64,000 nucleotides of DNA, taken from positions 69,688,001 to 69,752,000 of the forward strand of contig CM069134.1 of assembly GCA_035221665.1 (NCBI GenBank). The letters run 5' to 3'. This document shows positions 18,712-55,373 of this stretch, piece after piece (positions within the stretch are counted from its first letter, which is position 1; each line of letters opens with the position of its first letter). Source of the stretch: Okamejei kenojei (lineage: Eukaryota). The notes below the pieces were generated by a model. It was not told the DNA's origin and did no database searches. It worked only from the letters and a program-made list of their open reading frames with translations. The translations under genes were made by a program, and so were the position numbers.

Positions 18712-20563
18712 ATGCTGGTAAGGAATATAACATTGACAGACGATGAATTAACTGATGTTCCTGTTCAAATTGGGGAAGGTTAAAATTGTTCTCAAACAAT
18801 GGCAGCAGTTGACATCAGATTTGTTCATACTTAGTGTATTGAAGGGGTGAAAAATTGGATTTTACTATAAGGACAGTCTACCTAATCAACATTTTCCTAG
18901 TCATAAATGTGCTTATTCAAGCAGAGATTCAGTCATTACATAAGAAGGGGTAATTGAGCCTTCTGTCTATCAAAGTCAACAATTTCTGTCAAGTATATTT
19001 CCCAGATCTAAAAAGACTGGGGGATGTAGAATTATTCTGGATTTATCGAACAAATTTGTTTGTTATAGGCATTTCAAAATGGAGACCTTTACCACGGGGA
19101 ACCATTGATTTAAAGAATGCGTATTACGCAGTGTCTATTCATGGTGATGATAGAAGATATTTGAAATTTATTTGGATGACTGAGCTGTGGCAATTCAGGA
19201 CATTGCCGAATGGATTAACTTCAGCTCCTAGGTTATTTACTAAATTGGGAAAACCTGTGTTAGCATTACTTAGAGCTCAGGGGCATGTGGTAATGGCCTA
19301 TTTAGATGATATTCTGATTCTTGGAAAGACTCATGCTGAAACTCAATCATCAGTTTCAGTTGTTAAAATCACTTTTGAACAAATGGGATTTGTTATTCAC
19401 CCAGATAAATCTAAATTATCACCAGTCCAAATTATTGATTATCTGGGATTTACCATTAATTCCAATCACATGTTGGTAACTTTGCCCAGGGATAAATTGA
19501 ATCAGTTAATTGAGGACTGTGTTAATCTCGTTGGAGAACAACGGCCTTCGATTAGACAAGTAGCCAGTTTTATTGGGAAGTTGTTGCAGCCTTTCCAGCT
19601 GTGCAGTATGGTCCTTTGCATTATCAACAATTACAACCATCAAAGGAACAGGCACTGAGAATACAAGGGGCCAATTTTGATAGGCCTATGCAGTTGTCAG
19701 CTGGGGCGTACAATGGTGCTGACATACAATGGTGGATAGTACATGTTTCAAAAAATTTAAGGAAGGTTTGGTGGAATCACCGTCACTGATATTACAGACT
19801 GATGTAAGTGCACTGGGTTGGGGTGCAACAGATATGTCTTCTAGTTGTGGATGCAGATGGAATGTGGATGAGACATCGCTTCCTCAATTACGAGGGATTA
19901 ATTATTTAGAGTTGTTGGGCACCTGGTATGGGCTCAAAGCTTATTGTTCTACAAGGAGGGATCTGCATGTGCAGGTCAGATTGACAACACCACAGCAGTG
20001 GCATATGTAAACCACATGGGTGGAGTTAAGTCACAGTCTTGTGATAGACTGGCTAACCAGATTTGGAGCTGGTGTATTGACCAAAATATCTGGCTTTCAG
20101 CACTTTATTTGCCAGGAAGAGGTCACGTCAGTTTAATGACAACATTGAATGGATGTTAAATCAGGATGTATTTAACCAAATGATTGATCAGTATGCATTG
20201 CCAGATATTGACTTGTTTGCATCTCGATTAAATCATCAGTTACCTAGATATGTTTCATGGTAACCAGATCTTGGGGCAGTAGCAGTGGATGCATTTTCGC
20301 TGCATTGGGGGAGGAATGTTTGTGTATGTATTTCCTTCATTCTGTCTCATCAGCAGATGTTTGCAAAAGATAAAGGAGGACTCCGCTTCAGGGGTATTGG
20401 TAGTGCCAGATTGGCCTACACGAGCATGGTTTCCCGTTGTATTACAAATGGCTAGGGAGCCTTACATGCTTATGCCCAAGAATAAAAATCTACTGGTAAA
20501 TCCAGTCACTGGGGATCAACATCCTTTATAGGATCGTATTGATCTGTTAATTTGCAGATTTTA
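18712..20563 (+). pseudogene. DIRS pol (RT, RNase H, Dam-like methyltransferase), frameshifted
   Basis: IDLKNAYY, LPNGLTSAPRLFTK, YLDD, TDVSALGWGA, INYLEL, DNTTAVAYVNHMGG, DIDLFAS, YVFPSF. Confidence 0.92.
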
Positions 20564-21400
20564 AGGAGGCCATACCTGGGGAGAGGACTGTCTCATCAGA
20601 CGGTGGATGTTCTCACGTCGGCCTGCAGGGTTAGTACACAGCAGCAATATATCACCTATATAAAGAAGTGGGAGCAATTCTGCCTACAGCAGGATATTGT
20701 ATATCACACTGCAGGGATCACGGATGTATTGGAGTTTGTCAACTCTTTATTTTGACCAAAAAATTAAGTTACAGTGCGATTAATTCAGCCAGAAGTGCTC
20801 TGTCTTCTTATTTACCTATGAATGCAGAATTGCATACAGTAGGGACACATCCGTTAGTTCACGATTCATGAAGGGAATTTTCAATTCTAATCCTCCTAAA
20901 CCCAGGTATGCCGGTATTTGAAATGTGAGTGAGGTTCTTATGCTTCTTCGCCAGTGGGCTCCGGTTACAAGCCTATCTATAGCCAAATTAACTATGAAGG
21001 TGGTCATGCTTATGGTGTTGGTTTCAGCCCAACGTGTACAAACATTGCAAAAGCTACGGCTAGATAGAATGCATGTGTCGGCTGATGCCATTATATTTTA
21101 TGTCTATGATTTGCTTAAACATAATAAAAGAGGCATGACAGGATGGAAGATTGTGTTTTCAGCATACCCCGCAGATGATCGCTTCTGTATAGTCTCACAT
21201 TTATCTCGTTACATTGAGATTACTAAACCTCTGAGAGGAACAGAGTTGGCTTTGTTTATTAGTCACATAAAACCACACAGTAAGGTGTCGGTGCAAACGA
21301 TTTCAAGGTCCTCGCGGCCGCAGGATGGTCCAGTGAGCTAACTTTTCAGAGGTTTTATCACAAGCCGATTTCAAGGCTCGGGGTGTTTGCTGATTCTGGT
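20558..21400 (+). pseudogene. DIRS tyrosine recombinase, frameshifted with internal deletion
   Basis: STQQQY..YIKKW, YSAINSARSAL, LMVLVSAQRVQTL, LFISHIKPH..VSVQTISR. Confidence 0.9.
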
Positions 21401-22143
21401 GTCAGTACTGTTACATTTTTTCCCCTGAATTAGAGGGGTTTGTTATGATTTGTTTGTAAATAAACTGTTATTTCATTTAACAAATGTATTACTGATGCAT
21501 GATTGATTGTTAACGACTTTTGTGTCAATCCAGGCAGTGTGAACGTCGGATTTGAGTCTGCGGCGTGAATTCACAGTGCTTTGAAGTCTTCACGTAGTCA
21601 CTCACGTGACTCCGAGGTAAAATAGTAAGATTAAACGAGAACTTACCAGTTTGAAGTTTTATCTTTATTTTATGAGGAGTCGAGTTGAGGGACTACGTGC
21701 CCTCCGCTCCCACCCTCATAGATCTCATCTGGTAGTTCTAGTTTTATCATCTTACCGTTATACTTCGGTCATTGTTAGCTGTGAATTCATTCCGCTGCTT
21801 TGAAGATTGACGCACCAACGGCTGTACGGGCTTCTATTCACGTAGTCCCTCAACTCGACTCCTCATAAAATAAAGATCAAACTTCAAACTGGTAAGTTCT
21901 CATTTAATCTTACTATTAAAGTAGGCGACAGTGGGGACACATGACATCTGTCGTTTAAGAGTGTCAAACATCCTCTGCTGTTGCTCATGCCAGGCTCAAA
22001 CAGTGTCTTTGTGGGTTAGCTGACACAGTTTGGCTGATAGTTCACAACCAAGTTTGGAATAAATTTCCCCGAGTAATTTACCATGCCGAGGAATCTCTGC
22101 AGGTTGAGCACATCTGTGGGTGTTGGTAACTCGTTAATGGCAA

Positions 22144-25100
22144 TAGAAACATAGAAACATAGAAAATAGGTGCAGGAGTAGGCCATTCGGCCCTTGAAGC
22201 CTGCACCGCCATTCAATATGATCATTGCTGATCATCCAACTCAGTATCCTGTACCTGCCTTCTCTCCATACCCCCTGATCCCTTTAGCCACAAGGGCCAC
22301 ATCCAACTCTTAAATATCTTAGGTCCACATCTAACCTCTTAAATATAGCTAATGAACTGGCCTCAAATACCTTCTGACAGAGAATTCCAGAGACTCACCA
22401 CTCTCTGTGTGAGAAATGTTTTCCTCATCTCGGTCCTAAAGGAATTCCCCATTATCCTTAGACTATGACCCCTTGTTCAGGACCTCCCCAACATCGTGAA
22501 CAATCTTTCTGCATCTATCCTGTCCAATCCCTTAAGAATTTTGTAAGTTTCTATAAGATCCCTCCTCGATCTTCTAAATTCTAGCGCGTACAAGCCGAGT
22601 CTATCCAGTCTTTCCTCATATGAAAGTCCTGACATCCCAGGAATCAGTCTGGTGAACCTTCTCTGTACCCCCTCTATGGCAAGAATGTCTTTCCTCAGAT
22701 TTGGAGACCAAAACTGTAAGCAATACTCCAGGTGTGGTCTCACCAAAACCCTGTACAACTGCAGTAGAACCTCCCTGCTCCTATACTCAAATCCTTTCGC
22801 TATGAATGCTAACTTACCATTTGCTTTCTTCACTGCCTGCTGCACCTGCATGCCTACTTTCAATGATTAGTGTACCATGACACCCAGGTCTCATTGCATC
22901 TCCCCTTTTCCTAATCTGCCACCATTCAGATAATAGTCTACTTTCCTGTTTTTGCCACCAAAGTGGATAACCTCACATTTATCCACATTATACTGCATCT
23001 GCCATGCATTTTCCCACTCACCCAGCCTATCCAAGTCACCTTGCAGCCTCCTAGCATCCTCCTCACACTACCCCCCAGCTTAGTGTCATCTGCAAACTTG
23101 GAGATGTTGCATTCAATTCCCTCGTCCAAATCATTAATATATATTGTAAATAGCTGGGGTCCCAGCACTGAGCCTTGCGGTACCCCACTAGTCACTGCCT
23201 GCCATTCTGAAAAGGACCCGTTTACTCCTACCCTTTGCTTCCTGTCTGACAGCCAGTTCTCTATCCTCATCAATACTGAACCTCCAATACCAAGTGCTTT
23301 AAGTTTGTACACAAATCTCTTTTGTTGGACCTTGTCGAAAGCCTTCTGAAAGTCTAGATATAACACATCCACTGGTTCTCCCTTATCCACTCTACTAGTT
23401 ACATCCTCGAAAAATTCAATAAGATTCGTCAGACATGATTTAACTTTCGTAAATCCATGCTGACTTTGTCCAATGATTTCACCACTTTCCAAATGCGCTG
23501 CTATTCCATACTCTAGCATTTTCCCCACTACCGATGTTAGACTAACTGTTCTGTAATTCCCCATTTTCTCTCTCCCTCCTTTTTTAAAAAGTGGGGTTAC
23601 ATTAGCTACCCTCCAATCCTCAGGAACTACTCCAGAATCTAAGGAGTTTTGAAAAATTATCTCTAATGCATCCACTATTTCTGTGGCTACTTCCTTGAGT
23701 ACTCTGGGATGCAAACTATCTGGTCCTGGGGATTTATCGGCCTTTAATCTGTTCAATTTACCCAATACCACTTCCTGGCTAACTTGGATTTCACTCAGTT
23801 CCTCCATCTTATTTGACCCCCGGTCCCCTGCTATTTCCGGCAGATTATTTATGTCTTCCTTAGTGAAGATAGAACCAAAGTAGTTATTCAATTTGTCTGC
23901 CATGTCCTTGTTCCCCATGATCAATTCACCTGTTTCTGACTGCAAGGGACCTACATTTGTTTTAACTAATATCTTTCTCTTCACATATCTATAAAAACAT
24001 TTGCAGTCAGTTTTTATGTTCTCTGCCAATTTTCTTTCATAATCTATTTTCCCTTTCCTAATTAAGCCCTTTGTCCTCCTCTGCTGGACTCTGAATTTCT
24101 CCCAGTCCTCTGGTAGGTTGCTAATTTGTATGCTTCATCTTTTGTTTTTATTCTATCCCTGATTTCCCTTGTTATGCATGGATGCACTACCTTCCCTGCT
24201 GATTCTTTTGCCAAACTGGGATGAACAATTGTTGTAATTCATCCATGCTGTCTTTAAATACCTTCCATTGCACATCCACTGTCAACCCTTTAAGAATCAC
24301 TTGCCAGTCTATCTTGGCCAATTCATGTCTCATACCTTCAAAGTTACCTTTGTTTAAGTTCAGAACCTTGTTTCTGACTTAATTATGTCATTCTCCATCC
24401 TAATGAAGAACTCAACCATATTATGGTCACTCTTGCCCAAGGGGACACGCACAACAAGACTGCTAACTAACCCTGCCTCATTACTCAATACGCAGTCTAG
24501 AATAGCCTGCTCTCTAGTTTTGTTCCTCCACATGTTGATTTAGAAAACTATCCCACATACATTCCAAGAAATCCTCTTCCTCAGCACCCCTGCGCATTTG
24601 ATTCACCCAATCTATATGTAGATTGAAGTCACCCATTATAACTGTTCTACCCTTGTTGCTCGCATTTCTAGTTTCCTGTTTGATGCCATCCCCAACTCCA
24701 CTACTACTGTTAGGTGGCCTGTACACAACTCCCACTAGCGTTTTCTGCCCCTTAGAGTTTCGCAGCTCTACCCATATCGATTCCACATCCTCCAAGCTAA
24801 TGTCCTTCCTTTCTATTGCATTAATCTCCTCACTCACCAGCAACGCTACCCCACCTCCTTTTCCTTTCTGTCTATCCCTCCTGAATATTGAATATCCCTG
24901 GATGTTCAGCTCCCAGCCTTGGTCCCCCTGGAGCCATGTCTCCGTGATCCCGACTATAGCATAGTCATTAATAGCTATCTGCACATTCAACTCGTCCACC
25001 TTATTACGAATGCTCCTCGCATTGAGACACAAAGCCTTCAGGCTTGTTTTTACAACACTCTTACTCCTTATACAATTATGTTGACAAGTGGCCCCTTTTG

Positions 25101-25372
25101 ATTTTTGCCCTGGATTTGTCTGCCTGCCACTATTAATTTTCACCTTGCTACCGATTGCTTCTGCCCTCATTTTATACCTCTCTTTCTCTCTTCTCACACA
25201 TTTAAGAAACCCACCACCTCTTATTCTATGTTTATTATTTTTTCTTCAATCCACCCTACATGTTAGGTCTGAGTGCTTCCCTTCTCTGCCTCTTGCCTCA
25301 GACCCTGTCTACTAGCTTTCTCTATTTGAGTCCCTCCCCCCAACCATTCTAGTTGAAAGTCCCCCCAGTAGC
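22144..25372 (-). mobile_element. CR1 LINE with near-complete ORF2 (APE endonuclease and RT), disrupted
   Basis: CLNARSIRNK, GITETW, YRPP, GDFN; [30 protein letters not shown]; (ctatgttt)n tail. Confidence 0.95.
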
Positions 25373-25672
25373 CGAGTTACTGTACTCGGCCCCCCAGTAG
25401 CCGAGTAGCACAATCAACCAGTTGCACCTATTTCATCACCGAATGTGTCCCCAGTGTGCCCCCGGTGATGGGAGGAGATGCAGGACTGTGCCCTATGCAT
25501 GCTGGTATTGTTTGTAAGCCCACCATAAGGTACCCGGGTATGTTTGAACTTCCTCCAATTTATTGCCACAAACTATGTGTGCTTTATATAATGAGCAGTA
25601 TACATTTGCATTTAATTCTTTGTAGTACTTACTGGTTTTGCACATTTGCATTTAATTCTTTAAGAGGGAGGA

Positions 25673-29540: not shown

Positions 29541-29544
29541 GACC

Positions 29545-32224: not shown

Positions 32225-34236
32225 TTCCTCCATTTTATCATTTATGATAACCCGTGTAATTAATGATAGCCAAAACACAACAATGACTACACTACTAAAA
32301 CAGATATTCAAACAAGATGCTGATGTATTTTCCAAGAATTTCACCAAGCTTCCCGAGTTTGCGTGGGCGTAGCTTAATGATTTCCGTCTGAGGAGTCTTC
32401 ACCTCCTGAGTTTTCATGGGCGTAAATGCCCTCCATCCATCCTGATAAGTTCATCTGTTGTTGACTCATTGCAGAGTATGAAGTTTCTAAGAGAATCTGG
32501 AATAAAGCAAGTTCGCAGCCTACACTCCCATTGATACTCTTGCAGCGGTGGACATGCACCCATGCATTTCTACCTTCTATTTTCACTGCTGTTGGGGTCG
32601 TTAGGAGAACCTGGTAAGGTCCTTCCCAGTGAACCTCCAACCCTTTCCTAACCCAGTTCTTTACATTGTCTCCAGGCCACTTTAGCTGAAGCTGTCAACA
32701 AAGGCAACTCATTATATGCTGTTCTTACTTTACAGTGTGATACTCTCAACACTCGAGTCAAAGCCAGAATGCTGTCAGTCATCTCCGCAGTCATATGATG
32801 GAAATTTATAACTTTCATTGCATTCTGGTTCCAAGGTGTTCTTAGGGGTCTACCATAAATAATTTCAGCTGGTCTCAGTCTAGATTTCCCTGCAGGCGTG
32901 ACTCGCATCTGAAATAAAGCTATGGGAAGTAAATTAATCCAACCAATTCCAGTCTCCGCTTTCAATTTAGGTAATTTAGTTTTAAGAGTCTGATTTGCCC
33001 TTTCTACAAGTCCAGAAGCCTGCGGTCGATAAACACACTGTAATTGTGCTGGATCCCCAGCTGTTCACAAAATTCTTTATTAATTTGCCCAATAAAATGT
33101 GGAGCATTATCAGAACTAAGTCGAATAGGGGTCCCTAAGTCAAATAGGGATGAAAAAAACCTAGGGACAATTTATTTCATTAACACCTTGACAACAGTAG
33201 CTGTTTTATTATCAAGGGTTGGATATGCTTCAATCCACCAGCTGAATACATCGACTATGACAAGTACATATCTATAACCTTGGCACCGTTCCAATTCGAT
33301 GTAATCCATCTGTAATATCTCAAAAGGACCCTTGGGCAATGGTGTCTTCCCATCTCCACATCCCACCCTTTACCTGGAATGTATTTCTGGCAAATCAGGC
33401 AACTGCTATTTACTTTTTGAGCTAATGTTTGTAACCTTGGATGCCATCAAGTAGCCAAAAGAGTGTCTCTTAGTGCTCTTGCACCACAATGAGTTGCATA
33501 GAGCATGCATTCTATAACGCATTCTGCTAGTGAATCAGTCATACAAGTTTGCCCTGCTGGTGTAGTCCACAATCCTGTTATACAATCCAGTGTACACCCA
33601 AGTAGCTTCCATCATTCTTTATCCCTTTCAGTTGCCTCCTCGTGCAACTGAACAATCTCTTGGATGGTTGGCATCAGCTTTGCTAAGGGGGACTTGTTAT
33701 TTAAACATTTGGTCTGCCTCATCATCTTTGGCACCATCATCTTACGTTCCCGGGATATTTATTTTGCTGCCAGATCAGCATTATGATTTCCAATATCAAT
33801 TAGGGTCTGTCCTCTTGTGCGTGCACTACATTTTATAACAGAACTTTGTCTGAGTTACATCAGGGCCTTTAAAAAATCTGTCACTAATTATTTATTTGAA
33901 ATTTGAGTCCCTGCTGAAGTTAGAAATTCTCTATTTCGCCACAATTGTCCGAAATCATGCACTACTCCAAATGCGTACCTGAAATCTGTATATATGTTAA
34001 CCTTTAATTCCCCCCCCCCCCATAATACAAGCCCTAATTAAGGCAAATAATTCAGCCTGTGGTGCTGAATAAGGTGACTCAAAGGCAGTTGTTTCTACAT
34101 TTTCCCCATTCCGATTAACAATTGCATACCCAGCCAATTTCTCACCCCACTGTCCATAGATACACACCCATCTATATACAATGTTATGTCAGGGTCCTCT
34201 ATGGGTGCATCGTTCAAGTCCTCCTCATCGATGATA

Positions 34237-37200
34237 AATAGAAAGATTAAACAAGAACTTACCGTTTGAAGTTTGATCTTCATTTTATGAGAAGATGAAG
34301 ATAGGGAATACATGAAAAGCCCGCCAGTCCGCATGCATGTCAATCTTTAGAGCAGCTGTATGAAACCACAGAATAGTTGCCGAACGTAAGCTATAGAAAG
34401 ATTAACGACCTTAGAACTACCAAATGATCTTTATGAGAAGCAGGGTTGGGAGTGGAAGGCACGTATTCCCTCACTTCAACTTCTCATAAAATAAAGATCA
34501 AACTTCAAATGGTAAGCTCTCATTTAATCTTTCTATTCTATTTTGAAGTCACATGAGTGACATTATGAAGTTTTCAAAGCTCTGTGGTTTCATGCAGTGA
34601 ACCAGTCTCCATGCAGACAACTGCTCCAGTTGACCAACATGGCTAAGGAAACATACTTCATTGAAACATAATGTTAATTTTCAAACATGTCCATGCTTTA
34701 ATGGAAAAAATAGTCCCTTCACATCAGGGATAAACAGTTGATTTAATTAACAGAACTTAAAATGTTGTTAGCAAATAAACCAGGCTTGGTAATTATTATA
34801 AAATGTAAGAACAGTTCGCTCATCCACCCATCCTGCTGTCACAAGGATGTGATCCAGCGGAACTTCCATATTTCTTGCTGCCGACGTGGCTGCAGCCCTG
34901 GTGGAGTGAGATTTAAATACATCAGTATCCACTCCTGCTAATGCTGATACGTATCTTAACCACCTAGAAATGGTCTGCACCATTACCCTTTTATGTGTTT
35001 TTTTATGACTGATGAAGACAGCCGATTTGCTGCCTCGGAGGTTTTTTGTAACCTTTATGTATTCTTTAATATATGTAACCACACATAATCTGCGATCTGG
35101 TGGATATGCCAAGAGCTCCAACCTAAATCCTAGCGCACCTGATCTACTTTGCTTAATTAGCTCATCTATATAAAAGGTGTCCAGAGCCCAGCACCAAATA
35201 TGATGGTAAAGCACTACGAGCAGTGTTAATAGCGCTATAACTCAATTTTTTCTCAAAATAAGATTGAAAGAAATTCTAACACATCAGCTATATCTGCCAT
35301 AAAGTAACATATGCGTATCGACACAAAAGTCTTCCCATTGTTTAATATATGAGACGGACTGCTTCTTAGTGCCTTCACGCCAAGCTGCAGTGATTATATC
35401 CACCGTCCGGTCAGATAATCCGAGCCCCACGAGAGGTCTTTTCAGATTCTGCAAATTATCAGGTCGATTCTGTCATGAAGAGGATGAGGTTCCCGAGAAA
35501 CGGGCTGAAAAAGCAAATGTTCATGTTTATGAACAAGCATGGGCGGTTCCTTTAATACTCCTTTTAGTAAAGGGAACCATGATTGTGTAGGCTAGTTAGG
35601 CACTTCTAAAATACCCGATGTGAAATTTTGTATTATTTTTTGCAGACATCGTCCAATGAGGCAGAATGGAGGGAAAGCATAGAAGAACATTCCCCTCCAG
35701 TCTATAGAGAATGCATCTATTGCCTCCGCCCCTCGGTCTGGCTGCCATGCTACATATGTTGGTAAATGGTGATTAAGCCTGGAGGCAAACAAATCAATAT
35801 CAGGTGTCCCATAACAAGCTATAATGTCATTAAATACTTTATGATTCAACATCCATTAAGTGTGATCATTGAATTTAGGAGATCTAGCATCTGCCACCTT
35901 ATTAAATCTACCCGGCAAGTAAGCAGCTGAGATCCAAATTTTCTTGTCTATACACCAATTCCAAATGAGATTAGCTAAAGTATCACAGGATACTGATTTG
36001 TTTCCACCCATGTGATTAATATATGCCACTGCCGTAGTGTTGTCCATTTGAAATCTAACATGCACATCATGTAGCTTTCCACAGTAAGCCTTCAAGGCAT
36101 AAAATGCTCCCAGCATTTCCAGGTCATTGATACCATATTTACGACTAAATCGTGACTCGTCCATGTTCCATCTGCCACCGCAACTAGAGATGGTGTTAGT
36201 AGCTCCCCATCCCAGTGCACTTGCATCACTTTGCAGTGTTGTTGAAGGTTTGCTAGACAAAAACCCGCAGGAGTAATGTTGCATATTGGCAATCAACCAT
36301 TGTAACTCCGCTTTAGATTTGGACAATAACTGCATATGTCTGTCAAAATGACCTTTGTGGAATCTAAGTGCCTGATCCTTTGCACGCTCCAGATTCTGAT
36401 AATTCAAAGGCCCAAACCGTGCGGCTGGAAAGGCAGTCACTATTTTGCCAATTACTCTAGCCTTCTGGCGAATAGATGGTTTATCGGTAATCAAAAGATA
36501 AGAACAAGCTTCCATTAAATCTCATTTTTTCCTCATGGGCAGGGTCACGGACATTTCCACTGAATTGATAGTAAACCCTAAATAGTCAATAGACCTCGTT
36601 GGTATCAATCATGATTTGGCTCGATGGATGATAATCCACAATTTCTCAAAAATGAGCTTGGCAGCTGAAACAGCTAGTTTTGCCAGATGCAGTGTTCTCC
36701 AGATGATCAGAGTATCATCTATATAGCCCATAATAATATGCCCTTTGGCTCTAAGCAGGCCGAGCACTGGTCTAAGTAGTTTGGTAAACAACTGAGGAGC
36801 TGTGCTTAGACCATTCGGTAATACTTTAAACTGCCACAGCTGCCCCATCCAGCTAAACTTCAGATATCTCCGGTTGTCCTTGTGAATCAGAATTGAGTAA
36901 TATGCATCCTTGAGATCGATGCATGCCAGAAAGCAGCCCTCGGAAATTAGCTGCTTAGCAGTAAAGAAATTCTCCATTTTAAAATATCTATACTGCACAT
37001 GCAAATTGAAATTTGCCAATTCAAGGATGATACGACGTCCACCATCTTTCTTCATCCTAGAGATGTATTGTTCCTTTTCATGAATTGATCTCTCAATTAC
37101 TCCTTTTTTGTGCAATGCGTGTATTTCCGCTTGCATATCCAAAGTCTCTTGTTTGGAGCAAGTTTACATCCTACTCGGCTTATCTTGTGTAGGTGGGGAT

Positions 37201-38876
37201 GAGTTAGGCAAAAAAATCAATTTTGAAACCTTTTATACTGTGCAATATAAACGGGTCTGATGTTATCTGATGCCATTCGTGCAAGACCAAACTTAACCTT
37301 CCACCGACTTGAAATTCCTCCGCACACCCCGTGTGAGTGATGGAAACAGACCCACCTACCTCAAAGGTTACAGGTGGTTTACACCAGGGCCAGCGGATCT
37401 TAATTTTGGTTCTGTCTTTTCCCCCCGCTCTGGAAAGTTGAGCTGTTGGGACGTGAGGCTGCCGCATCTTCCAGGATGGGCGAGATGGGCCTTGGCCTAA
37501 AAAAGACCTGTGACCGGGTTGGAACTGGGCAAATTTGGAATTCCCACCAGCTCTAGAGAACCGCTTCTTGCTGGTAGAGGCGAAGGGGTGATGATGCCGG
37601 AAGAGGAGAGTCTTGCCCACAGAGGATGCCTTGATCATGCCAGCTGCTTTTGACTCCTCATACAAGTCCTTGAACTGCTTGCTCAAGTCTTCTCTGAAGA
37701 GGAATAGGAAGCTGAATATTGCTGGCCCTGCATAAATGTGCAAACTTTGGATTCAATTTTGGCCTGATGCCGTCTTTTCGGAAGCAGTTGATCTCAAAAT
37801 GGGCGTTGCACAGTGGTGCCATAGCATCCTGCTGAACGTCCGACAACTGAATCTCATCTACTGACCTAGCAAAGGCTGTGATACCTGCCGACAATAGCCT
37901 CACGTTCCGTTGTAGCTTCAGTTCTCTGGATCTCGTACTGGACCCAATACTTTCCCAAATAGTGGTGTTAACTATGGGCACATTTTAGGTTGAGCAGTTC
38001 TCCGGATATTTCACAGCCGTTTCCACCATAGTCATCTCCTTCAGCTGGTGGGAAGTGTGGTAGCTGATGCTGTTGGCCAACTCCCCTCGAAGTGGCTTGC
38101 CCGTCCCCGAAGGGACAGCAAATCTGGAGGCAAGAGCGGGCAGCTCTACTTTATGCGATTCATGCATACCATGCATTCCAGCATGGGCCTCCGGCACACA
38201 TTCATATTCAAAGTCAGCTGCATACTGATCTCCGCCACTCCCCTCATTCGAGAGGGAGGAATATAGCAGTCCTGAACCAGGAGATGCAGCAGGCATTTGA
38301 ATTGAACTGCCTGAGTATGCCTCTGTAGCATGGAGCATATTGTGTGCCAGCATCTTCTCCATAAGATGCTCCATCTAAGACAAACAGCCTAATACATCAG
38401 CCATGAGGGAACGGTATCTTCCTGGCCAGAATCGTCCGACAGGACTTGTCTCCTTGTTTTAGCTTTGGCATTTCCCCCCTGCGGGGCTGCCAAGCTTCTC
38501 TCTTGAGGAGCCAATTCAGAGGTAGCTGAGCAGACCAGAGCTGCCAGCAATTCTGATGTAGAAATGGACGGCTGCGGGCTTCCCGCAGTGCTGCGGTCTT
38601 CCCGCAGTGCTGCGGTCTTCTGTTGCTGGTTTTACAGTGGCCCGTCTAGGTTTAGTCCTAGGCTTTTCCATCGTAACAACCTAGAGACTTGTTGAAATTA
38701 AAGTACACCAAACACACTCAGTGCAGGTTTACACTTACCTGAGATGTTTTTAAACTTACCGCTGGGGAACCCGACGTTCCCCCCCATCCCCCAGCCAGTC
38801 CGTGCGCCATGCGTTTGACGCGCATGCGGACTGGCGGGCTCTTCACGTAATCACTCATGTGACTTCAAAATAAAAT
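34237..38876 (-). mobile_element. DIRS1-like retrotransposon (copy 2) inserted in ERV pol
   Basis: Termini and ICR resemble copy 1. RT YIDD; RH DASALGWGA; MT DIDLFAS..YAFPPF; YR FKSHSTRAAATS..AGW. Removing it restores the ERV frame HYCLFIIDEEDL. Confidence 0.95.
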
Positions 38877-41562
38877 AAACAGTAATGTCCCGCTTCTGAC
38901 TGCTCTTCTGAGGGTGAGACAAGAAAAGATGCAGGGTTAATTGTTGTACAATGCCTAAACTGAAGCTTTGAGTTATATAATAAGTAAATTTCATATTTGT
39001 TCTGACGAGCCATTGTTAGGGGCTGTGTCTGTAATTGTCCCAACAAGGCTGCCACTAAATGTGAGCTATATACTACAATCTCCTGCTGTAGGGTCAAATT
39101 TGCAGCCGACTGTAAAGTTTTATATATGGCAGTTAGAATTTGGGTGCAGAGTGGGTGTCCCCTGGCTACAGGATCTAATTTAGAAGAGTAATAGGCAACT
39201 GGTCTATGCCTATCCCCATGCTTTTGAGTAAGGACTGCCATTGAACACTCAGAGAGTATGGTGCAATAGAGTTGGAAGAGTCTGTTGCAAAGTGGTCTTC
39301 CCAATGATGGAGCCTGCATCAATTCAAGTTCTCAAGTTCTCAAAGGCCTCGTGTGCTTTCCTAGTTAATTGAAATCCACTCTCTTTACTTGTATAGGGTG
39401 TCAGCTCTTTAATTTCTAAAGCTATATTAGGGATCGAAGCTCTAAAGTAATTGACCATACCAAGCCATTGCCTCATTGGTTTTGCTTCTTTAGGAATCGG
39501 GAATTCACAAATTGGTTCGAGTCTGCTTTTTTCTGGACTCCTTTCTGTTGCCGAAATTATGACTCCTAAAAATTTTACTTTCTCCTGGCCATCTGTACTT
39601 TCGACTGGGAGACAACATATCCCAGATTAGCCAGATGATGTAGTAATTGTGCAGTATCTTCACGGTTGCTTGGTTCATCTCTGCTGGGCACTAATAAATC
39701 ATCGACGTACTGCCCTAAAGTAGATATTTTTCTATAAATCTAAAGTATTCACTTGTTCTTGTAGACATCAGGAAAATAAAGTAGGTGAATTGATGAATCC
39801 CTGAGACAATATGGTCCAGGTGTATTGCTGGCCCCTGCATCTGAAAGCAAACAAATATTGACTGTTCTTATGGAGAGGCAAGGAAAAAAATGCGTGTTGC
39901 AGGTCGACTATTGAGAAGATTTTGATTTGGCTGGGATTAAAGCTAAGATGTGAACAGGGATTGGCACTAGAGCATGGAGCAGTTCTACAACTGTGTTAAT
40001 CGATCTTAGGTCTTGGACCAGTCTGTACTGGCCTTCCTTCCCTGGTTTCGGTACTGCGGGGATTGGTGTTTGTAGATTGATTGACATTTTACCAAGATGT
40101 TTTGTTCTAGCAGTCCCCGAATGAATTTGTCTATGCTGTTAATGGCATGTGGTTTTAATGGATACTGTTGTATCAAAGGCAATGTTACCCCTTTCTGGAG
40201 TGCTACTTGGATGGGATTGATGTTCACGCATCCTACCTGAGCCGTATCTTCTGCCCAAACCTGAGGGTCCACATACTTGCATACCTCGCTCCCCAGATGC
40301 TAATGTAGGTGGGTAATAACTGTCCTTGGGGCCTGATGAAACTTAACAACATACTGGTTAGACAAATTTTGCTCTTCGCATTTATTTGGGTCTGCCATGG
40401 TAATTGCCCTTTTCACCATTGGTCCTGGATCGACACACTCCAATGTAAAACACAAGCATTGGTATAATATCGCATTTGCTAACTGTACAGTTCCAAAAAC
40501 AAATCACAGTATATTTTTAATCCTTTGCCGTGCTGTTTTCAACCAACAGAACCCCTCCCTTAGATACAGAAGACCTTCCCATCAAAGTACTCTTCGCTGA
40601 GCGGTACTCTTCCTATCAAGCTACTCTTCTTCTGTCAGGTACTCTTTCCTCACACTAAATGCTTAGACATAGGGGTACAGTTCCCATCGAGTTACTCTTC
40701 ACTAACAAGTACTCTTCATCTACCTCAGTTTACTCTTCAACGAACAGGTACTAATCAGTGATCTAAAGGATACGAACCCTTGGTTGAACAGCCACGATTC
40801 GGTCTCCAATTATAATAGCAGTCTTAATCACTCTGTATCCACATACAGTCGCGATTCGAACCACTAGTACAACAATATAACTAACACTCAAAACTTAAAA
40901 TCAAATGCAATACACAGTAGATAAAATAAAACAACGGCAACATTTTAAGCACACTTCAAACTGTAACTTAACAAATTTTAACAATTCCAAAAATATTTTT
41001 ATTCAACAATCTAATATATACAATTGTATTAATATACAATAGCCTGTACCCTCAATATGAAATCCTTGAAATAGAAATACAAGATCTCTATGGAATAACC
41101 AGTCTTTCAATATGAAGCCCTGAATTTTGGTAAATTTGGATCAAAGAATTTAGACCTTTACACTCTTATGCCCGTCTCTTGGGTGCAAAGTCTCCAGAGT
41201 TTTCCGTTCAGGTTTCCTAAGTGGGACAGGGGCATAACTCTCTTGTCCAATCATCTTTTAGTTTCCTTCCCACATATTCAAATTTTAGAATAGACACGTC
41301 TTTATTTTATTTTTTATTATTTTAAATATTTTTTTATTAAGTACATAATAAAAATATTTCATGTAACAGTCATACATTACTAATGTTGTCAATATTATCA
41401 ATTATTTAATGACTGCTATATATTTTTATTTTTTATATAGATAGAAAATAATAAGGAGAGAGAAAAAAAATCAAGAAGGTATAATAAAAAAGAATGGAAT
41501 AATTTACTAATAATAAATTAGTCTAGTATTAATGACGAATACAAGTGTTCCAAAGTAAGACT

Positions 41563-42878: not shown

Positions 42879-44359
42879 CGTATGCGTCTACCACTCTCAG
42901 CAATCAATGAATGTCGTGAAATGCTCCCCACCTACTGGCACAAGGGACTTCTTAACATCTTGTCCTGTGTACTTGATTCACACCATTGGAGATTTGTTCG
43001 TAAATTATAAAATATAACTCTTCATCTAATCCTTAATTTGAGTTTCAGTCAGGTTCTCATGCCAAACCAGTTTGCCCCTTCAGATAATCAATAAATAGAG
43101 ACCATATTCTGATAAAAAATTCTTGTTTGTCCATTAAGACAAGTCTGATTCTTTCCAAATGTAAGGTCTCCGACAATTCCATAATTCACATTTTGATTGT
43201 GGGGGTTATAGGACCTTTCCAAAATTTTAATATTAATTTTTTTCCCAATTATTATACTATAGTCAATAAAGTTGCTTTGGCTTGTAGTAAGTATTTGACT
43301 TTGTTCTAATATTCCTAATATTATTAATTTTGTGTCGGGGTCCAATTGGGTGTTGACAACTTCCAAAATTATCTTAAAAATTTCCATCCTAAAGTTTTAA
43401 ATTTTTATACAATTTACAAATGTATGAGTTGTTAGCCTCTAAATGCTGCCATTTATCGTAGATAGGAGATATATTTGGCAAGATTCTATTTAATTTCATT
43501 TTTGAGTAATGTAATCTATGTAATACTTTAAATTGTATTAAAGAGTGTCTGGCATTTAACGAGCATTGATGTATATGTTGGAAGCTTTCGTCCCAAATAT
43601 CTTTCATTATTGGCTGGCCTAGTTCGTTTTCCCATGTTTGCCTATATATTTCCGTGGTTGGTGCCTCACTGTCTAATAGGATATTATATATATATAACCA
43701 TATAACAATTTAAGATATAACAATATAAGATATTAATTTTTCTATATTAGGGTGTTTATTCAATCATTCATCAAGAGTTTCTGGATCTCTAGTTCTGTAA
43801 TCCCATGTATTTGATTTAGCATAATCCCTAAATTGTAGATATCTGAAATAGTCATTTGAGTGAGGTCCATAAGTTGTTGTAACTACTGAAATAAAGAAAT
43901 GTACCTTTCCTATAGAGATGACCCATCTTTTTAATTCCGTGATTTTTCCATTGTAAAAAAACCTTTATCCAACATTAAAGGTTTAAATGCAGGGTTGTTT
44001 ACAATGGGGAGAAAGAGTGATAGATTATCCAATTTTAAAGTATTTTTTAATTGTTTCCAAATTCGTATACCACTCTATATTATAGGGTTTTCATTATCGT
44101 TTTTTTTGCTCAGTTTAGTGGTAGCGAACAGAAACAAACCAATTTCAAAGGGTAAACAGTTTTCCTTTTCCATTTTTAACCAGTCTGGTTCCTGGTCCAA
44201 TTCTTCCAACCAGAAATTCATATTTTTAATGTTAACTGCCCAGAAATAGAACACGAAATTCGGTAAAGCTAAACCTCCATTTATTTTTGATTTACATAAA
44301 TGTTTTTTGTTTATTCTGTGATTCTTATAATCGCAGATAAAATTAGGGACTAATTTGGT

Positions 44360-44898
44360 CTCCAAATCTGAGCAAAGACATTCTTGCCATAGAGGGGGTA
44401 CAGAGAAGGTTCACCAGACTGATTCCTGGGATGTCAGGACTTTCATATGAGGAAAGACTGGATAGATTCGGCTTGTACTCGCTGGAATTTAGAACATTGA
44501 GGGGGGATCTTATAGAAACTTACAAAATTCTTAAGGGGTTGGACAGGCTAGATGCAGGAAGATTGTTCCCGATGTTGGGGAGGTCCAGAACAAGGGGTCA
44601 CAGTCTAAGGAAAAGGGGGAATTCCTTTAGGACCGAGATGAGGAAAACATTTCTCACACAGAGAGTGGTGAGTCTCTGGAATTCTCTGCCACAGAAGGTA
44701 GTTGAGGCCAGTTCATTGGCTTTATTTAAGAGGGAGTTAGATGTGGCCCTTGTGGCTAAAGGGATCAGGGGGTATGGAGAGAAGACAGGTACAGGATACT
44801 GAGTTGGATGTCCAGCCATGATCATATTGAATGGCGGTGCAGGCTCGAAGGGCCGAATGGCCTACTCCTGCACCTATTTTCTATGTTTCTATGTTCTA
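44360..44898 (+). mobile_element. Young CR1 3' fragment
   Basis: Very similar to the reverse complement of 22144-22710. Confidence 0.92.
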
Positions 44899-47905: not shown

Positions 47906-48834
47906 ATGTTTGGCTCTTGTTTCTCACTGGCTTTTGTTTGCTTGGCCCGCTTCACCACGAGTTTCAAGTGAAGGAAACAACATTCACCCCCGAGATCAGT
48001 TCAACATTTGTAAGTGGATTGACTTGCTTGTAAAGGGTTCAGTAGTTGAGCTACTATATTCTGAGAACTACATTGTGCACTCTGTATCTTTCCCTTTAAT
48101 CAATCTATTGCACTTGAGTTTAGCTTGAAATTGTATTTATTCATCATACTATCTGACAATTGGATAACATGCTAGATGAAGCATTTTACTGTACCTTGGT
48201 ACACGTGACAATAATACACAAAACCTAAGTCAATGTAATTGCAATAATTGCACTTCTTGTCTGGGAGCCTGAATTTAATATTAATATGTATGTTAGGTGG
48301 GAGGTAAAATAAATAGTGATGAAAATCACAAAATGTTGTTGACAACATTGTAAATCTAAGAGAATGATCAGGCACTTGCTGCTGAATGCAACCTGATGAC
48401 GCAAACCTTCAACAACCACATCAGAGGGTACACATTAAAACGTGACAGGGCAGATATCATCAGCTTTAGTCATTTGAGTATCCTGTCAGTATTCTGACAT
48501 AAGACTTATGAATCAAAAAAAAAGTGACAGGATGCACCAATTTTCATAATATATAGATAGAAAGAAACTGCAATGACAGTTCGAATGACTAAGATTTATT
48601 ATGATTGCCATCACTGCAATCCAGCACTTTATCCAAGTGCCATTCTTCATACATGAGCTCAGACACTGACTGTTGGCAGGGGATTTGACTAAGCTGATTG
48701 CAAACCCCTGAGAAGAATAAGTACTAAAAAAAATGGCAACATTATTCATCCATGTTAAAATTGAGTAGATGCCAGTCAGGCATTTGGGGTGACTTTTCAC
48801 ATGACATTAAGGTCAGGATATTTTTCACCCACCC

Positions 48835-49012
48835 TGATGTGCTACAATGCTGAGAACTTTATTCCGCACTCTGTATCTTCCCCTTTGCTCTATCTATTGT
48901 ACCTGTTTGAACTGTTTATATCTATGCATGGTATATTTGATCAGACTGGGTAGCATGCAAAACAAAGCACTTTATTTCAGTACTTGTGACAATAACAAAC
49001 CTAAACCTAAAC
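48835..49012 (+). mobile_element. LINE 3' tail fragment (related copies at 48040-48225 and 26460-26560)
   Basis: gtgacaataa followed by an (aaacct)n tail. Confidence 0.55.
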
Positions 49013-49202
49013 CCGAGGTGGAACAACTTTAACTAGCTCATGTAGCGTAGAGGTCAAACTCATGCTGTTGTTGATCTGAAGTGTTCAGTGGATGGGAATA
49101 TATTTCTCACTGTTCCACTGGCAGCCTCTTCAGTTTAAAATAATGTAAATTATTCATTTATTTGTTTGGTTGTAACAATTCCAGAATTAATTATTCCAGA
49201 GG

Positions 49203-49522
49203 GCAGCACAGTGGCACAGCTAGTAGAGCTGCTGCCTCGCAGCACCAGAGAACGAGCTTTGATCCCGACCTCGGGTGCTGTTTGTGTGCCGTTTGCACAT
49301 TCTCCATGGGATTCCTCCAGTGTTTGGGATTCCTCCCACATCCCAAGGACGTGTGAGTTTGTAGGTTAATTAGCCTCTTGTAAAATCTCCCTTATTGTGT
49401 AAAGTAGATGCAAAAGTAGGATAACATGGAACGAGTGTGCACGGGTGATCAATGGTCGATGTGGACTCAGTGGGCCAAAGGGCCAGTTCATTTCTGCATC
49501 TCCAAACCAAACTAAAACTAAA
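49203..49522 (+). mobile_element. tRNA-derived SINE
   Basis: cacagtggcacagctagtagagctgctgcc head; (aaact)n tail. Confidence 0.82.
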
Positions 49523-50750
49523 CAACCTCCTATATGAGACTAATACATAATTTGATTGACAAAAAAAACACAATATCCCCATCAAAATGCAAAGCATGAA
49601 CTCTCTGGATGTTACCTTAAGAAAGGAATTGCATACAACTCTTCAAAAATGCTTGCTTTACAATACACTTGATGTGTTTTATATTGTGTGCGTTTTTGCT
49701 CAGATATAAATAAAGCGATTCACAACAAAAATCAACCCAACCAACTGCATTTAACATAAAACATATTGAATCCTCTCTGTTATGTCACAAATTACCTTTG
49801 ACACCTAACATATGACAATAAATGGGTCAAATTATTTTCAATCCTGGTTTATTAATGTTAGCATTTTATGTCTTGAACTTGCACAATCTGAATTAATCAG
49901 CAAAATTGACTGAGGATTACTTTTTGTTGATCTAATTACTTATTCATGCGATTTATTGCCTGAAGCAAGAATGCTGAATGCATTACCTGAAGTTCACATT
50001 TATCACCGAATCATTTATTGTTTTGTACTGAGTAACTTGGATCATAATTGGAAGCAATGAGAACATTCATATTAGATCAATATCTTAGATTTTCAAGGTT
50101 ACTGTGTATGTATATCATACTTAACACTATATTGTATACAACCAAAGCATCAGTCAAGGGAATATTATGATATTCTGTTCTAAGCAAGGCAGTAAGGTTT
50201 TTAAAGTGTAGACACATGCTAGGAATGAATTTAACTTAACCAATCCGTGTTTTTTTTTCTACTTTACTCTTCTTGAATCTTCTCTTCAACGGATAAAGGA
50301 TGCCTATGATAGGAAATAAGATCATTCCATTGCAGACCCTTGATATAATTCGAAAGCTTCCCACACATTAATGGAAATCCTATTACGAATCTGCCTCAAC
50401 AATTTGCTTCACATAACAATGAGTAGCAACAGCACTCGGAAATGGAATTCCCTCCCCTGGAGGGCAGTCAGGCAAGGGAGAAGATAAGATCAGAAATGGA
50501 ATAAAAAGCTTTGGGTGTCTTAAGACACCTAAAACATGTTATTCCCGATCTAATAAACTATGTTTTTAAATCGAAATAAAGGTGTCAAAATGAAACAAAA
50601 TTTACATACTTAAGAATTGCTTTATAGTGGTAAATAAGAATTTAAGACTTCCAATGTAATAATGACACCAAAACAGGCTGATGATTAAATGGAAAACAGA
50701 AAAGAATTGAGATATTTGTATTCTGCCTTGTATTTAAATTGTAGGAATAA

Positions 50751-53700
50751 AATAGTAAGATTAAATGAGAACTTACCAGTTTGAAGTTTGATCTTTATTT
50801 TATGAGGAGTTACGATGAGGGATTACGTGAAGACCCCGCCAGCACGCATGCGCGACATTCTTCAAAGCAGTGGTGTGAAATCACAGATACCAGAGTAGAC
50901 TAATATAGTAAGATAAGAAAGAACTTCCATACCAGTTGAACTTTATAATAGAGGGTTTTGGGAGCGGAGGGCACGTAATCCCTCATCGTAACTCCTCATA
51001 AAATAAAGATCAAACTTCAAACTGGTAAGTTCTCATTTAATCTTACTATTTTACTTTGGAGTCACGTGAGTGACTACGTGAAGATTTCAAAGCTCTGTGA
51101 TTTCATGCCCTGGAACGAGACCATGCTCACACACTGCCATTCTGGGACGGAGGATGAACGTATTTCACACACGACACTGTGCTGAAAAACAATAAAGGTA
51201 TTATTCATACCTAAAATAATATGCCCCACATTGGGTAATTTATTTTACAGAACTTAATTTTTCCCTGCAAATGTCTCAGGATCGGCCACGGGTTTATTAT
51301 AAAGCATTGAATGCGTTCATTGCTCCACCCCGCTGTGGCAAGGATGTGATCCATAGGAACTCCCATCATCCTAGCGTCCGATGTAGATGCAGCCCTGTTG
51401 GAGTGAGATTTGAAACATTAGTATTCACCACTGCACGTAATACCACCCAAACCATCTGGATATGGTTTGCACTGTGACCTTAGGTGAGGGCATTTATGGC
51501 TAATGAGAAAGCTCTCTCCGTGCCCATAAGTGTCTTGGTGACTATATATTGGAAAATATGTGTCACTATGCAGGGCCGACTATCTGCAGGATAGGCCAGA
51601 ACTCTAATATTGGCCAAAGGAACCGGGTCAGTCTTGCTTAAGTACCCCTGTATGTAGCAGGTTATCTGCCATTTGTGACAGACATGACGTCCTATTCTAG
51701 CTTGTGTAAGGACTGGACCCGTTGTGCTGATCCAAGTGCCATAATCATTCCCATCTAGGATATTAGTTTGTCCAGAGTGAGCCCCGATATTGGTGTCCAT
51801 CCTCGTAACATGGTGTACTACCTATGTCCCATATATGGGTGTATCTGGGCCTGGGGGGGAATAGAGTACAAATACCCCTCATTCGTTTAGGTACTAGTGG
51901 GTGTGATCCTATAGCCAGGTGATCACTCCCTCTGCCCAGATATTAGATAGGGCACTCCTTGCACAATAATGGCACTGTAACTCAATCCTTCATCGAAATG
52001 AAGGGTGGCCAGAACTCCAGCACTTCAGTGTTGGTGGCTGAGTCATATGTAGTGTTCGTCCTGGTGCAGAACACTTCCCATTTCCTGACATATGTCAGGT
52101 ACTGTCTTCTCGTGGACTCCCTGCACGACGCTGAGATGGCATTGATCGTCCTGTCGGAGAGTCCGTATCCCAGAAATGGCCTGTTCAGAAACTGCAAATC
52201 AACAAGTTCATACAGTCATGGCACGGATACTTTCCCGCACGGGGTGTGCCAACCTCCTTGGCCGTTGTTGATCCAGATGCAGGGTTCTGAGACCATCTTT
52301 GTACTGTTGGGAACCATGGTACCCGTTGCGGCATCTTGTTTAATTATTGTAAGACTCGCCTGATGAGGCAGAAGGGGAAAATGCATAGCAAAACAAATCG
52401 CCCCCCCCCCCCCCCCCAATGCAGCGAGAAATCGTCCATCGCTGCTGCCCCTGGGTCTAGTTCCCAAGCAACATATGTTGGTAGTTGGTGAATTAGTCTG
52501 GATGGAAAAAAGGTCGATATCTGGTGTCCCATACCGGTCTATAATATCTGTAAACACTTTCCGATCCAACATCCATTTAATGTTGTCGTTGAATTTACGT
52601 GACCTGGTGTCTGCCACTGTGTTTAGCTTACCTGGAAGGTAAGTGGTTGAGATCCAAATCTCTCTCCCAGACACCAGTGCCAGATATTATTAGGCAATTC
52701 ATCACATGATATCGACTTTATTTCACCCATATGATTATATATAGGCCCCCAGTGTGGTATCAATTTGTACCGTACATGCAACTGGTGCTCATCTGAGCAG
52801 TAGGCCCTGAGTCCATGAAACGCTCCCAGCATTTCTAGATAATTAATTCCTAGTGCTTTAAACAGAATAATTTTTGTGCACTCATCTGCCACCACAACTT
52901 GCGGTGGTATTAGTTGCTCCCCAATCTTTAGCACTGGCATCAGTCTGTAATGTACCCTAGGGATATAGAATGGGGTGATGGGGTTAGGATAATATTGAAC
53001 ATTTCTATCCACCAGTTTAATTCTAATTTACTTTCCCTGGTAGTTGCATAGGCCTATTGAAATGGCCTGCATGATTTTTGAGAGCTAAAATTTCCCTCTT
53101 CCAGGTTTTAATAATGGAGTGGTCCAATTGTGCTGCTGGGAACACAGCCACCAATTTCCCAATCACTCTTGCTCCTTGCCGAATGGATGGTTCCCTGATG
53201 CCAGTGAGACTTTTGCATACTCCCATCAAGTCTGTCACTTTGTTTGGTGGCAAGGTGATAGACATATGAACAGAGTCAATAGTGAACCCCAGATAATCCA
53301 TGGTAGTGGAGGGTTCCAATTTTGATTTATCTGGATGTACGTTAAATCTCTGTGTTGTGGCTGATACCACCAATGTAGCCAGCTCCAATTTTCACCTACA
53401 ATGAGAATATCATCAAGGTAAGCCATGACGATATGGTTATGTTTCTTTAAGTATGCTAAAGCTGGTTTTAATAAATTTGTAATAGCCTGGGTGCTGATGA
53501 CAACCCATTGGATAAGGCATACTGCCATAGCTGTCCCATCCAGATAAATTTCAGGTATTTACGATGACCCTGTGTGTGACAACCGTGTCTATTTTGAAAT
53601 GGGCATACTGAACGGAAGTATTTAGTTTGGTCAAATCTGTAATGATACGGCAACCACCATCTTTTTAGTTTTTTATAAATATATTTGATACGAACTCTTG

Positions 53701-55373
53701 AAATTCTCTGATTGTTTTCTCAATCCCTTTTGTGTTTAGTCTTAACAGTTCAGCATGGCCTGCTGTTCTCTCTTTTTGTGAAGTATGAACTTCCTGCTAG
53801 GCGTATGCTGAACTGGGACGGTAGTTCGTATACAAATTCAATTTTGTAATTCTGAATACTTCCGATTATGTAAAAGTTCAGAGGTAAAAGTGCAGCACAC
53901 ATGATGAAACAAGTGCAACCGTCCCCCAACTTTTGATGAATCGGACATACAATGTTTTTTAAGACAACCAGACCCACCTACCTCCATGGTTACCGGTGTT
54001 GTGTGGGTTGTCTCCGCAGTTGTTTCTTCTGGTATTGTGTTGCTGCGTTGTGGGGTTGGCGCATTTTCCATGAAGGCCGGGCTGGGCCATGGTCTGAAAG
54101 ACCGCTGTGCAGGTGGGCCGGCCTTCGAGCTTTCACCACCAGATGGTCTTCCATAGCACCGATGTCTGGTGGGTGTGTAGGGGTGCTGCCACTGTTGATA
54201 GTGGGTTTTAGAGGTGCTTGGCACCTTGATCAGGCCTATAGCCTTGGCTTCCTCATGCAGGTCTTTCACCTGCTTCAGGAGGTCCCCCAACAGCAATTTT
54301 GGCGCCTGTGTGCTACTTGTCTTGCATAATTCCGCACTTCTTGATGATGCTCTTCCTGTAACTGTTAATCTCCACTGAGTATTACACAGTCTGCTAGAGC
54401 ATCTAGTAACTCTTCAGGCAAATCAACCCCATCAGTTGTCCTGGTACTGCTGTGATTTTAGCAGCCAGCAGTTTCCTCTGGAGCTTCCCCTCCTGGCTCC
54501 TTATAGATGGGCTCCTGTTGCCCCAGATGGGGTCATAGACTGCTGGTACTTTAAGAGAAATGGAGTTCTCTGGAGCAATGTACTTCCCAGCCATAAAGTT
54601 AATGGCTTGCTCCTGTAGCTGTTTTCGTAGCCATGTATTTTATACTGGCTTGCAGCTTTGTATAGGCAGTCCTTCTTGAGTTGATACAGCATGTGTCCCA
54701 CAAATCTTCTGCTGCTCTCTCTTCTGGCACCCCTCACAGTTGACTGTTCAGCCATTGCCCCTTCTTCAGGGTCAGCCCAGCTCTGACCCCTAATGCTCCC
54801 CTGCGAAGAGGGTGAGACATTTGGCAGTCCTTGAAAGGATGCTGCCGTGGGTCTGCGAGGAGACCCACTGTGACTCTGCCCCTGCATAAGCAGGTCACGC
54901 TGGAGCACTGCTCCCCATCCGCTCCCGCGGGAAAGGCGCCCGCCGTCCCTATCCGTGAACGGGGTGTCTTCAGGTCCGAACCCAGCCGAGTCAACGGACC
55001 TGTCCGACTTCCGGGTGGTTTTGCCGCCGACCGCGGCGCACCTGCGGTCTGTAGCGGCGAGAAGCCGGCAGCTGCTGGCAGCACCTGCAGCTCTGGAGAG
55101 ACGGCACGCTGCTGGCTGCTTCCACAGCAGCGGTATCAGCTGCTGCTCTCCCTTGCACGACTCCATGGTGCTTCCTCCGTTCTGAAAAAGAAACACACCG
55201 AGTCGCCACGCTCACCAGAAAAGGTAAGACTTACCTTCAGTAATTTTTCAAAACTCGCGCTGGAGGAGCGGCGCTCCTCCCGACTGTCGCTTCCGCAATG
55301 CGTTCGACGATATGTCGCGCATGCGTGCTGGCGGGGTCTTCACGTAGTCACTCACGTGACTCCGAAGTAAAAT
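50751..55373 (-). mobile_element. DIRS1-like retrotransposon (copy 3)
   Basis: Left terminus 55373-55310 is matched by the ICR (51050-51085) and by an inverted copy at 50825-50857. RT YLDD; RH INYLEMLGA; MT GTPDIDLF; YR STRRQY. Confidence 0.95.

Follow-up and report, generated by a model that had tools for sequence, protein, structure and literature searches.

Three DIRS1-like retrotransposon copies lie in the 64,000-nucleotide (nt) window analysed here (Okamejei kenojei, contig CM069134.1, positions 69,688,001 to 69,752,000 of the forward strand). Each has a splice donor in the linker between gag and pol and a splice acceptor at the start of the tyrosine recombinase (YR) frame, and the two sites are conserved in frame. 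Judged from DNA sequence, pol is probably spliced from some of the RNA, which would give a Gag-linker-YR protein. The original prediction treated pol as an optional intron, and the phase-0 ends of this intron are indeed conserved; the donor and acceptor positions, the junction texts and the lengths removed by joining (Table 1) are exactly as it placed them, as are the ends of the pol frame in copies 1 to 3 (ICRF, ICRI and ICSF, each followed by a stop). The product it proposed, an ATG and one further codon joined to YR in the manner of retroviral env, is not supported.

When the 20 best-matching genomic relatives of each copy are compared, all 60 have the acceptor TTTGCAG, and of those that align, 18/18, 13/14 and 20/20 have the donor GT for copies 1, 2 and 3. 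These counts are biased, since likeness to the acceptor region was the criterion by which the relatives were chosen. Many genomic relatives of copies 1 and 3 are about 99% alike across this region; the best relatives of copy 2 are 79 to 90% alike. The donor of copy 1 reads CTG/GTAAGG (the slash marks the junction), but CAG/GTAAG is found in better-preserved relatives. As in an intron, the GT-AG ends and their consensus are conserved beyond coding need. Donors and acceptors were scored throughout by simply counting matches to the consensus.

Better-kept relatives came from searching the genome for the recombinase family (96 matches, 40 fetched). In L061, which is about 90% like copy 1, a single open frame of 1090 codons spans gag and pol, and YR is a separate frame of 333 codons, with its first Met at residue 93. 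Gag and pol are likewise a single frame in L072, L082, L092, L094, L096 and L097, and the gag motif, the donor and the first pol motif share one open frame in 15 of 19 copy 1-family relatives. Gag is a separate first open reading frame (ORF) in family 2, that of copy 2, and in metagenome elements, and is fused to pol in family 1 and others. The ATG originally taken as the pol start is an internal codon, the frame being open for at least 50 codons upstream in copy 1 and at least 144 in copy 3. An upstream exon made of this ATG with its own start was rejected, as the codon lies inside the gag frame and is missing in several families. Since the ATG is internal to the gag-pol frame, the exon spliced to YR would be the whole gag frame plus linker; pol-less genomic copies (described below) join gag, and not a bare ATG, to YR.

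Conservation of the donor was followed across 53 families, namely 43 distinct elements with enough flank from 80 metagenome loci and 10 families of this genome; viral contigs that were searched gave no relative. The pol start gave a usable anchor in 36 families. In 30/36 of these the highest-scoring phase-0 donor of the linker matched at least 7 of 9 consensus letters, compared with 16/465 control windows inside pol; at least 8 of 9 were matched in 15/36 compared with 1/465. Donors of at least 7/9 were found in phase 1 in 11/36 families and in phase 2 in 1/36 (controls 34/465 and 25/465), those in phase 1 being mostly a tandem GT four letters on from the phase-0 donor. The controls are imperfect, as the linker is freer than pol; the phase bias, however, is internal to the linker. 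The linker is unconserved as protein, yet G/GTRAG-like words are kept in one phase. In single-frame families, some donors are followed four letters later by another GT, use of which would change the frame.

For the acceptor, 47/53 families have an in-phase YAG with a pyrimidine tract in one of three homologous places: the Cys-Arg end of pol in 20 families, the FPPF-S Ser in 19 and, in 8, an Arg that lies four codons further on. Of the 24 families with a YR frame that is closed upstream, 20 have the Cys-Arg AG. Where that frame is open for at least 67 codons, the Cys-Arg AG is present in 2/29 and an in-phase YAG lies about 200 to 225 nt upstream in 27/29; in 12 of these 27 the TAG of the upstream acceptor is the stop that opens the YR frame. 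As originally suggested, the AG is held at the nucleotide level. Codons of the Cys-Arg class are TGC-AG in 20/20 families (background TGC 52/122 Cys, AGR 181/250 Arg), one subfamily reads His-Arg but retains CAG (4 loci), and in the open-frame group, where the Cys-Arg site is unused, the codon after Cys takes 15 forms. The Ser at PPF-S is AGY in 20/23 (background 144/622). When at least 11 of 15 pyrimidines were required, a YR-phase site was found in the last 243 nt of pol in 34/53 families, and sites in the other phases in 6 and 11 (control windows by phase: 43, 16 and 36 of 247).

As originally noted, the YR frame of the window copies lacks an initial Met, although it begins five to eight codons before the AG and not directly at it; after the AG it is open for 65, 54 and 69 codons in copies 1, 2 and 3. 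An in-frame Met does lie between -100 and +25 of the YR start, at scattered places, in 39/53 families, which counts against the Gag-YR splice. Retroviral and gypsy env messages arise by a splice that skips pol and most of gag and gives a free protein. A comparable subgenomic mRNA might yield free YR here, started at the internal ATG before the donor or, with a leader donor joined to the YR acceptor, at the first YR Met. The scattered Met codons favour such a route, as do strong leader donors in all three window copies and in six further family members and an ATG-GAG/GT arrangement that recurs in several families. It is nevertheless very unlikely. The ATG is inside the open gag frame and is missing in family 2, L076, L084, L091, L094 and the pol-less family; 14/53 families have no Met before +43, and the first Met of family 1 comes at +87, where the N-terminal SAM-like domain ends. 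Free YR would also leave the phase-0 constraint on the linker donor unaccounted for. The Gag-YR splice favoured here resembles env in that skipping pol reaches the 3' frame, and differs in that gag is kept and the 3' frame is a recombinase.

Genomic copies without pol carry the predicted junction exactly. A degenerate pattern of GAG plus the YR start had 17 matches in the genome (CAG control, 4438): in ten, gag runs straight into YR in frame, another six are unspliced copies bearing a point change, and one is unrelated. A set of 37 loci, picked next by junction or likeness and so giving no genome ratio, comprised 22 with the exact junction, one with an altered upstream end, one that did not align and 13 parents with GAG/GTAGGT-type donors. 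The parental acceptor aligned in 8/13 and was CAG-ended in 7; five acceptors lie 1.90 to 1.96 kb from the donor. Most pol-less copies keep the DIRS right end and therefore likely moved with borrowed proteins; DIRS-1 reverse transcriptase (RT) acting in trans is reported in the part of PMC7192593 covered. The pol-less lineage (L119-L153) has a leader insertion of 1.4 to 1.8 kb, so that its members total about 4.4 kb, compared with 4.76 kb for the parents. One idea is that a length requirement for mobilisation accounts for this padding.

The absence of an ATG at the pol start of copy 2 is explained by the separation of gag and pol in its family, with a slippery site upstream. A T-run plus AGG is present in 12/14 aligned copies of the family, the full TTTTTTA in 9 and the donor register in 10, and the gag stop lies 41 nt before the donor in 3/5 copies checked. 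The heptamer of copy 2 itself is out of register because of a small indel; it is in register in 10/12 relatives. An in-register slippery word near the start of the open pol frame was found in 25/26 metagenome elements (L168-L242) compared with 3/215 control windows, being TTTTTTA or AAAAAAC in 24 and GGGAAAT in one. TTTTTTA lies in the gag FLG motif, and AAAAAAC is the alternative. The -1 frameshift sites of human immunodeficiency virus 1 (HIV-1) and mouse mammary tumour virus (MMTV) have slippery words of the UUUUUUA and AAAAAAC types, and the words here are of the same types. A -1 frameshift is thus predicted to link gag to pol in the copy 2 family and in most invertebrate-type elements.

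In 22/22 frameshift-type elements with a good donor, the gag stop ends 2 to 41 nt upstream of that donor, and for this reason the stop codon was rejected as the cause of the donor. Because of this placement only frameshifted ribosomes would cross the donor. A stop more than 50 to 55 nt before an exon junction triggers RNA decay, and the stop-to-donor distances stay under this threshold.

A -1 frameshift might instead act at the end of pol and produce Gag-Pol-YR, as Poulter and Butler 2015 proposed for Ngaro according to the part of PMC13003380 that quotes them. The elements described here are like Ngaro in that YR overlaps pol, by a small stretch, in its -1 frame. The pol/YR overlap, however, has a strict heptamer in 3/53 families and any canonical one in 10/53, at no shared place, in contrast to the 25/26 slippery sites at the gag/pol overlap, and it is just 7 to 10 codons long in most families of this genome. 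Frameshifting from pol into YR was rejected on the lack of a conserved slippery site and is the least probable of the alternatives; the evidence favours splicing on the gag side.

A number of observations weigh against the splicing of pol. The leader insertion is common to 20/22 pol-less copies and missing in 13/13 parents, and trees of pol-less and parental copies do not reject a single pol-less clade (approximately unbiased test, p-AU 0.059 and 0.068) and do not resolve independent origins; the YR tree omits five truncated pol-less rows, and two long rows were kept. The pol-less copies are probably one lineage from one event. Their junction lies inside a 4-nt AGGT match at both ends, where it could have arisen by a template switch, and these copies retain the candidate leader intron. 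Junction searches of the genome gave a single match for family 1 (an unspliced copy with local changes), none for families 2 and 3 and their kin, and one for two other families, without gag upstream; other exon ends gave 11 matches, all with pol upstream, and hence no second pol-less lineage. None of the 80 metagenome loci is pol-less (two were too short to tell). Six of 36 families lack a good donor and 6/53 lack a classed acceptor, the pyrimidine tract is only modest in the window copies, and FPPF codons are pyrimidine-rich for protein reasons. In the acceptor-class tree, which omits four decayed rows and includes two long ones, the Cys-Arg class forms a single clade whose 20 members are not independent; it would count as one acceptor shift, and the Arg class would need at least two origins. 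On the frameshift side, no 3' stimulatory structure was enriched (mean z -0.5 over 17 elements, three below -2.5; crude shuffle, pseudoknots outside the model), and the scheme does not account for free Gag in the single-frame families.

These points can be read as an absence of splicing, with the AG and GT kept by protein constraint in overlapping frames, codons inherited among relatives, and the pol-less copies derived from one RT jump between AGGT words; internal deletions are otherwise common in these elements. This account is also very unlikely. In the open-frame group the position after Cys is unconstrained, with 15 codons in use, donor-like words stay in one phase of a linker that is unconserved as protein, and the acceptor position moves with the opening of the YR frame. 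Within the element there are 44,631 four-letter pairs more than 300 nt apart, only 145 of which are near both sites and in the same phase. Chance use of exactly this AGGT pair is unlikely, the pair counting as one well-aimed event and not as many. Without splicing, moreover, YR is given no expression route.

Splicing is read here from DNA and not from RNA, which also counts against it. Run contigs on copy 1 (X1-X4) and L061 (X5, X7, X1, X6) contained no predicted joint, which says nothing either way; nine runs were found, one of them recorded as RNA, X3 and X4 were probably DNA, X1 and X2 were guessed to be RNA and X5 had only 11 contigs. Gene models lend weak support, as four of 300 YR-bearing proteins fetched join gag to YR without pol and 33 join pol to YR. 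Three are RefSeq models (XP_071483612.1, XP_071502116.1 and XP_072032829.1) from Diadema antillarum and Amphiura filiformis (sea urchin and brittle star), which cluster with a fourth member. The RefSeq models join at E/V or E/I, homologous to the genomic junction, and contain the -1-frame FFR linker. The gag and YR protein P0194 is consistent with the upstream acceptor. When the whole library was searched with a Gag-YR protein model, one more gag and YR protein appeared among the best 150.

Taken with these reservations, the feature is real and widely conserved, the pol intron is likely correct, and Gag-YR is its likely product. Unspliced RNA would be translated into Gag-Pol and also serve as the genome, and RNA spliced at the linker donor would give Gag-YR. 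In families with a slippery site, both RNAs would yield mostly Gag, with a little Gag-Pol or Gag-YR made by -1 frameshifting; in the copy 1 family, as in several others, a single frame covers gag and linker. Fusion to Gag could carry the recombinase into the particle together with the cDNA. For animal DIRS1-like elements as a whole, we lean towards a two-switch scheme, in which a -1 frameshift followed by a splice swaps the enzyme borne by Gag. The donor would have been kept between invertebrates and vertebrates, the acceptor would have slid among the three spots, which would explain the long and short pol/YR overlaps, and some vertebrate families would have hard-wired the frameshift, Gag-YR perhaps serving them as capsid protein.

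Table 1. Parts of the three DIRS1-like copies in the window (a slash marks an exon end; ITR, inverted terminal repeat; ICR, internal complementary region)
Feature	Position	Strand	Remarks
DIRS copy 1, full length, decayed	17248..21917	+	left ITR to right ITR
Copy 1 candidate leader splice donor	17323..17328	+	GCG/GTAAGT, near left end
Copy 1 gag remnant and gag-pol linker	17451..18717	+	last 50 codons in frame with donor; ATG 18712 internal
Copy 1 pol remnant (RT, RNase H, methyltransferase), predicted intron	18718..20557	+	1840 nt; donor CTG/GTAAGG, acceptor TTTGCAG
Copy 1 tyrosine recombinase remnant, predicted exon 2	20558..21424	+	family assigned via relative L061
Copy 1 ICR	21599..21699	+	pairs with both element ends
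DIRS copy 2, full length, decayed	34237..38871	-	ICR about 34460-34560
Copy 2 candidate leader intron	38681..38738	-	58 nt, 5' of gag ATG (38671); second donor at 38759
Copy 2 predicted -1 slippery heptamer	37498..37504	-	TTTTTTA, in gag FLG motif
Copy 2 pol remnant, predicted intron	35449..37359	-	1911 nt; donor GAG/GTAGGT, acceptor TTTGCAG
Copy 2 tyrosine recombinase remnant, matched part	34792..35448	-	
DIRS copy 3, full length, decayed	50797..55373	-	right end approximate
Copy 3 candidate leader intron	55182..55234	-	AAG/GTAAGT ... TTTCTTTTTCAG, 53 nt, 5' of gag ATG (55166)
Copy 3 pol remnant, predicted intron	52192..53981	-	1790 nt; donor GAG/GTAGGT, acceptor TTTGCAG
Copy 3 tyrosine recombinase remnant	51316..52191	-	

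The three window elements are DIRS1-like copies. In all three, the left end, the ICR and the right end match one another in inverted orientation, and the copies match L061 pol along its length and L061 YR with their YR remnants. In L061, RVT_1 is over the cut-off, Dam is below it (E 0.003) and RNase H is recognised from motifs only; Phage_integrase and Phage_int_SAM_4 are over the cut-off, identifying a tyrosine recombinase and not a DDE integrase. All three window copies are too decayed to make the predicted protein. Copies 1 and 3 belong to near-identical lineages with common stops and frameshifts, which seem to be full-length elements with dead genes that spread in trans. The gag of copy 1 has a 107-nt tandem duplication (17848-18061) that some relatives share and others lack. 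Contig depth is hundreds of times above the rest at about 17365-17433 and 21576-21900, reflecting an abundant short repeat inserted in the 5' part of copy 1 and end sequences common to many DIRS elements.

Two tandem leader donors (CG/GTAAGT and CAG/GTAAGT) are found in the three window copies and in L061, L076, L084, L094, L098 and L100, and most of these leaders have a pyrimidine-rich AG just 5' of the gag ATG. Their sequences point to a possible short intron in the 5' leader of these elements. The insertion of the pol-less lineage is in the same leader region. Elsewhere in the window, segments at 12703-13623, 22941-24134, 44347-44799, 16124-16789, 32651-33064 and 38858-39331 are presumably CR1/L2-type long interspersed element (LINE) and gypsy-type pol fragments, going by their motifs. 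Copy 2 appears to sit inside a gypsy-like remnant.

In the parts of PMC3266345 and PMC9210276 covered, DIRS1-like elements are described with three separate ORFs, and the route to pol or YR is unstated. The elements described here share with them gag, pol with RT, RNase H and methyltransferase, YR, ITRs, an ICR, ATT-type ends and the occurrence of long or short pol/YR overlaps; the overlap is long in half of the 28 DIRS1-like elements of PMC3266345. They differ in that gag and pol form one frame in several families and are linked by a slippery site in others, and in that overlap length tracks the position of the splice acceptor. The plant Ty1/Copia element EVD has a single gag-pol frame and a conserved alternative splice that sets protein output (PMC5580714, part covered). 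Unlike EVD, where the spliced RNA gives only Gag, the splice here would leave out pol entirely and join Gag to the integration enzyme. A literature search whose scope lay outside the main DIRS reviews, and which took in parts of PMC9341512, PMC4157794, PMC5633606, PMC6681497, PMC3783388, PMC4482531 and PMC3950715, gave neither an intron in DIRS pol nor a Gag-YR fusion or gag-pol slippery site. How new this is in print is uncertain, as Goodwin and Poulter 2001, Poulter and Butler 2015 or Repbase notes may mention splicing.

DIRS elements are a whole order of retrotransposons, and in the literature covered it is not stated how their pol and recombinase proteins are reached. Exact, testable coordinates are now available for one splice and one frameshift. 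The predicted splice would explain why pol/YR overlaps in DIRS1-like elements are either long or short, and it would mean that the N-terminus of annotated DIRS YR ORFs is wrong. A Gag-recombinase fusion, if true, would solve the problem of how the recombinase is delivered to the cDNA.

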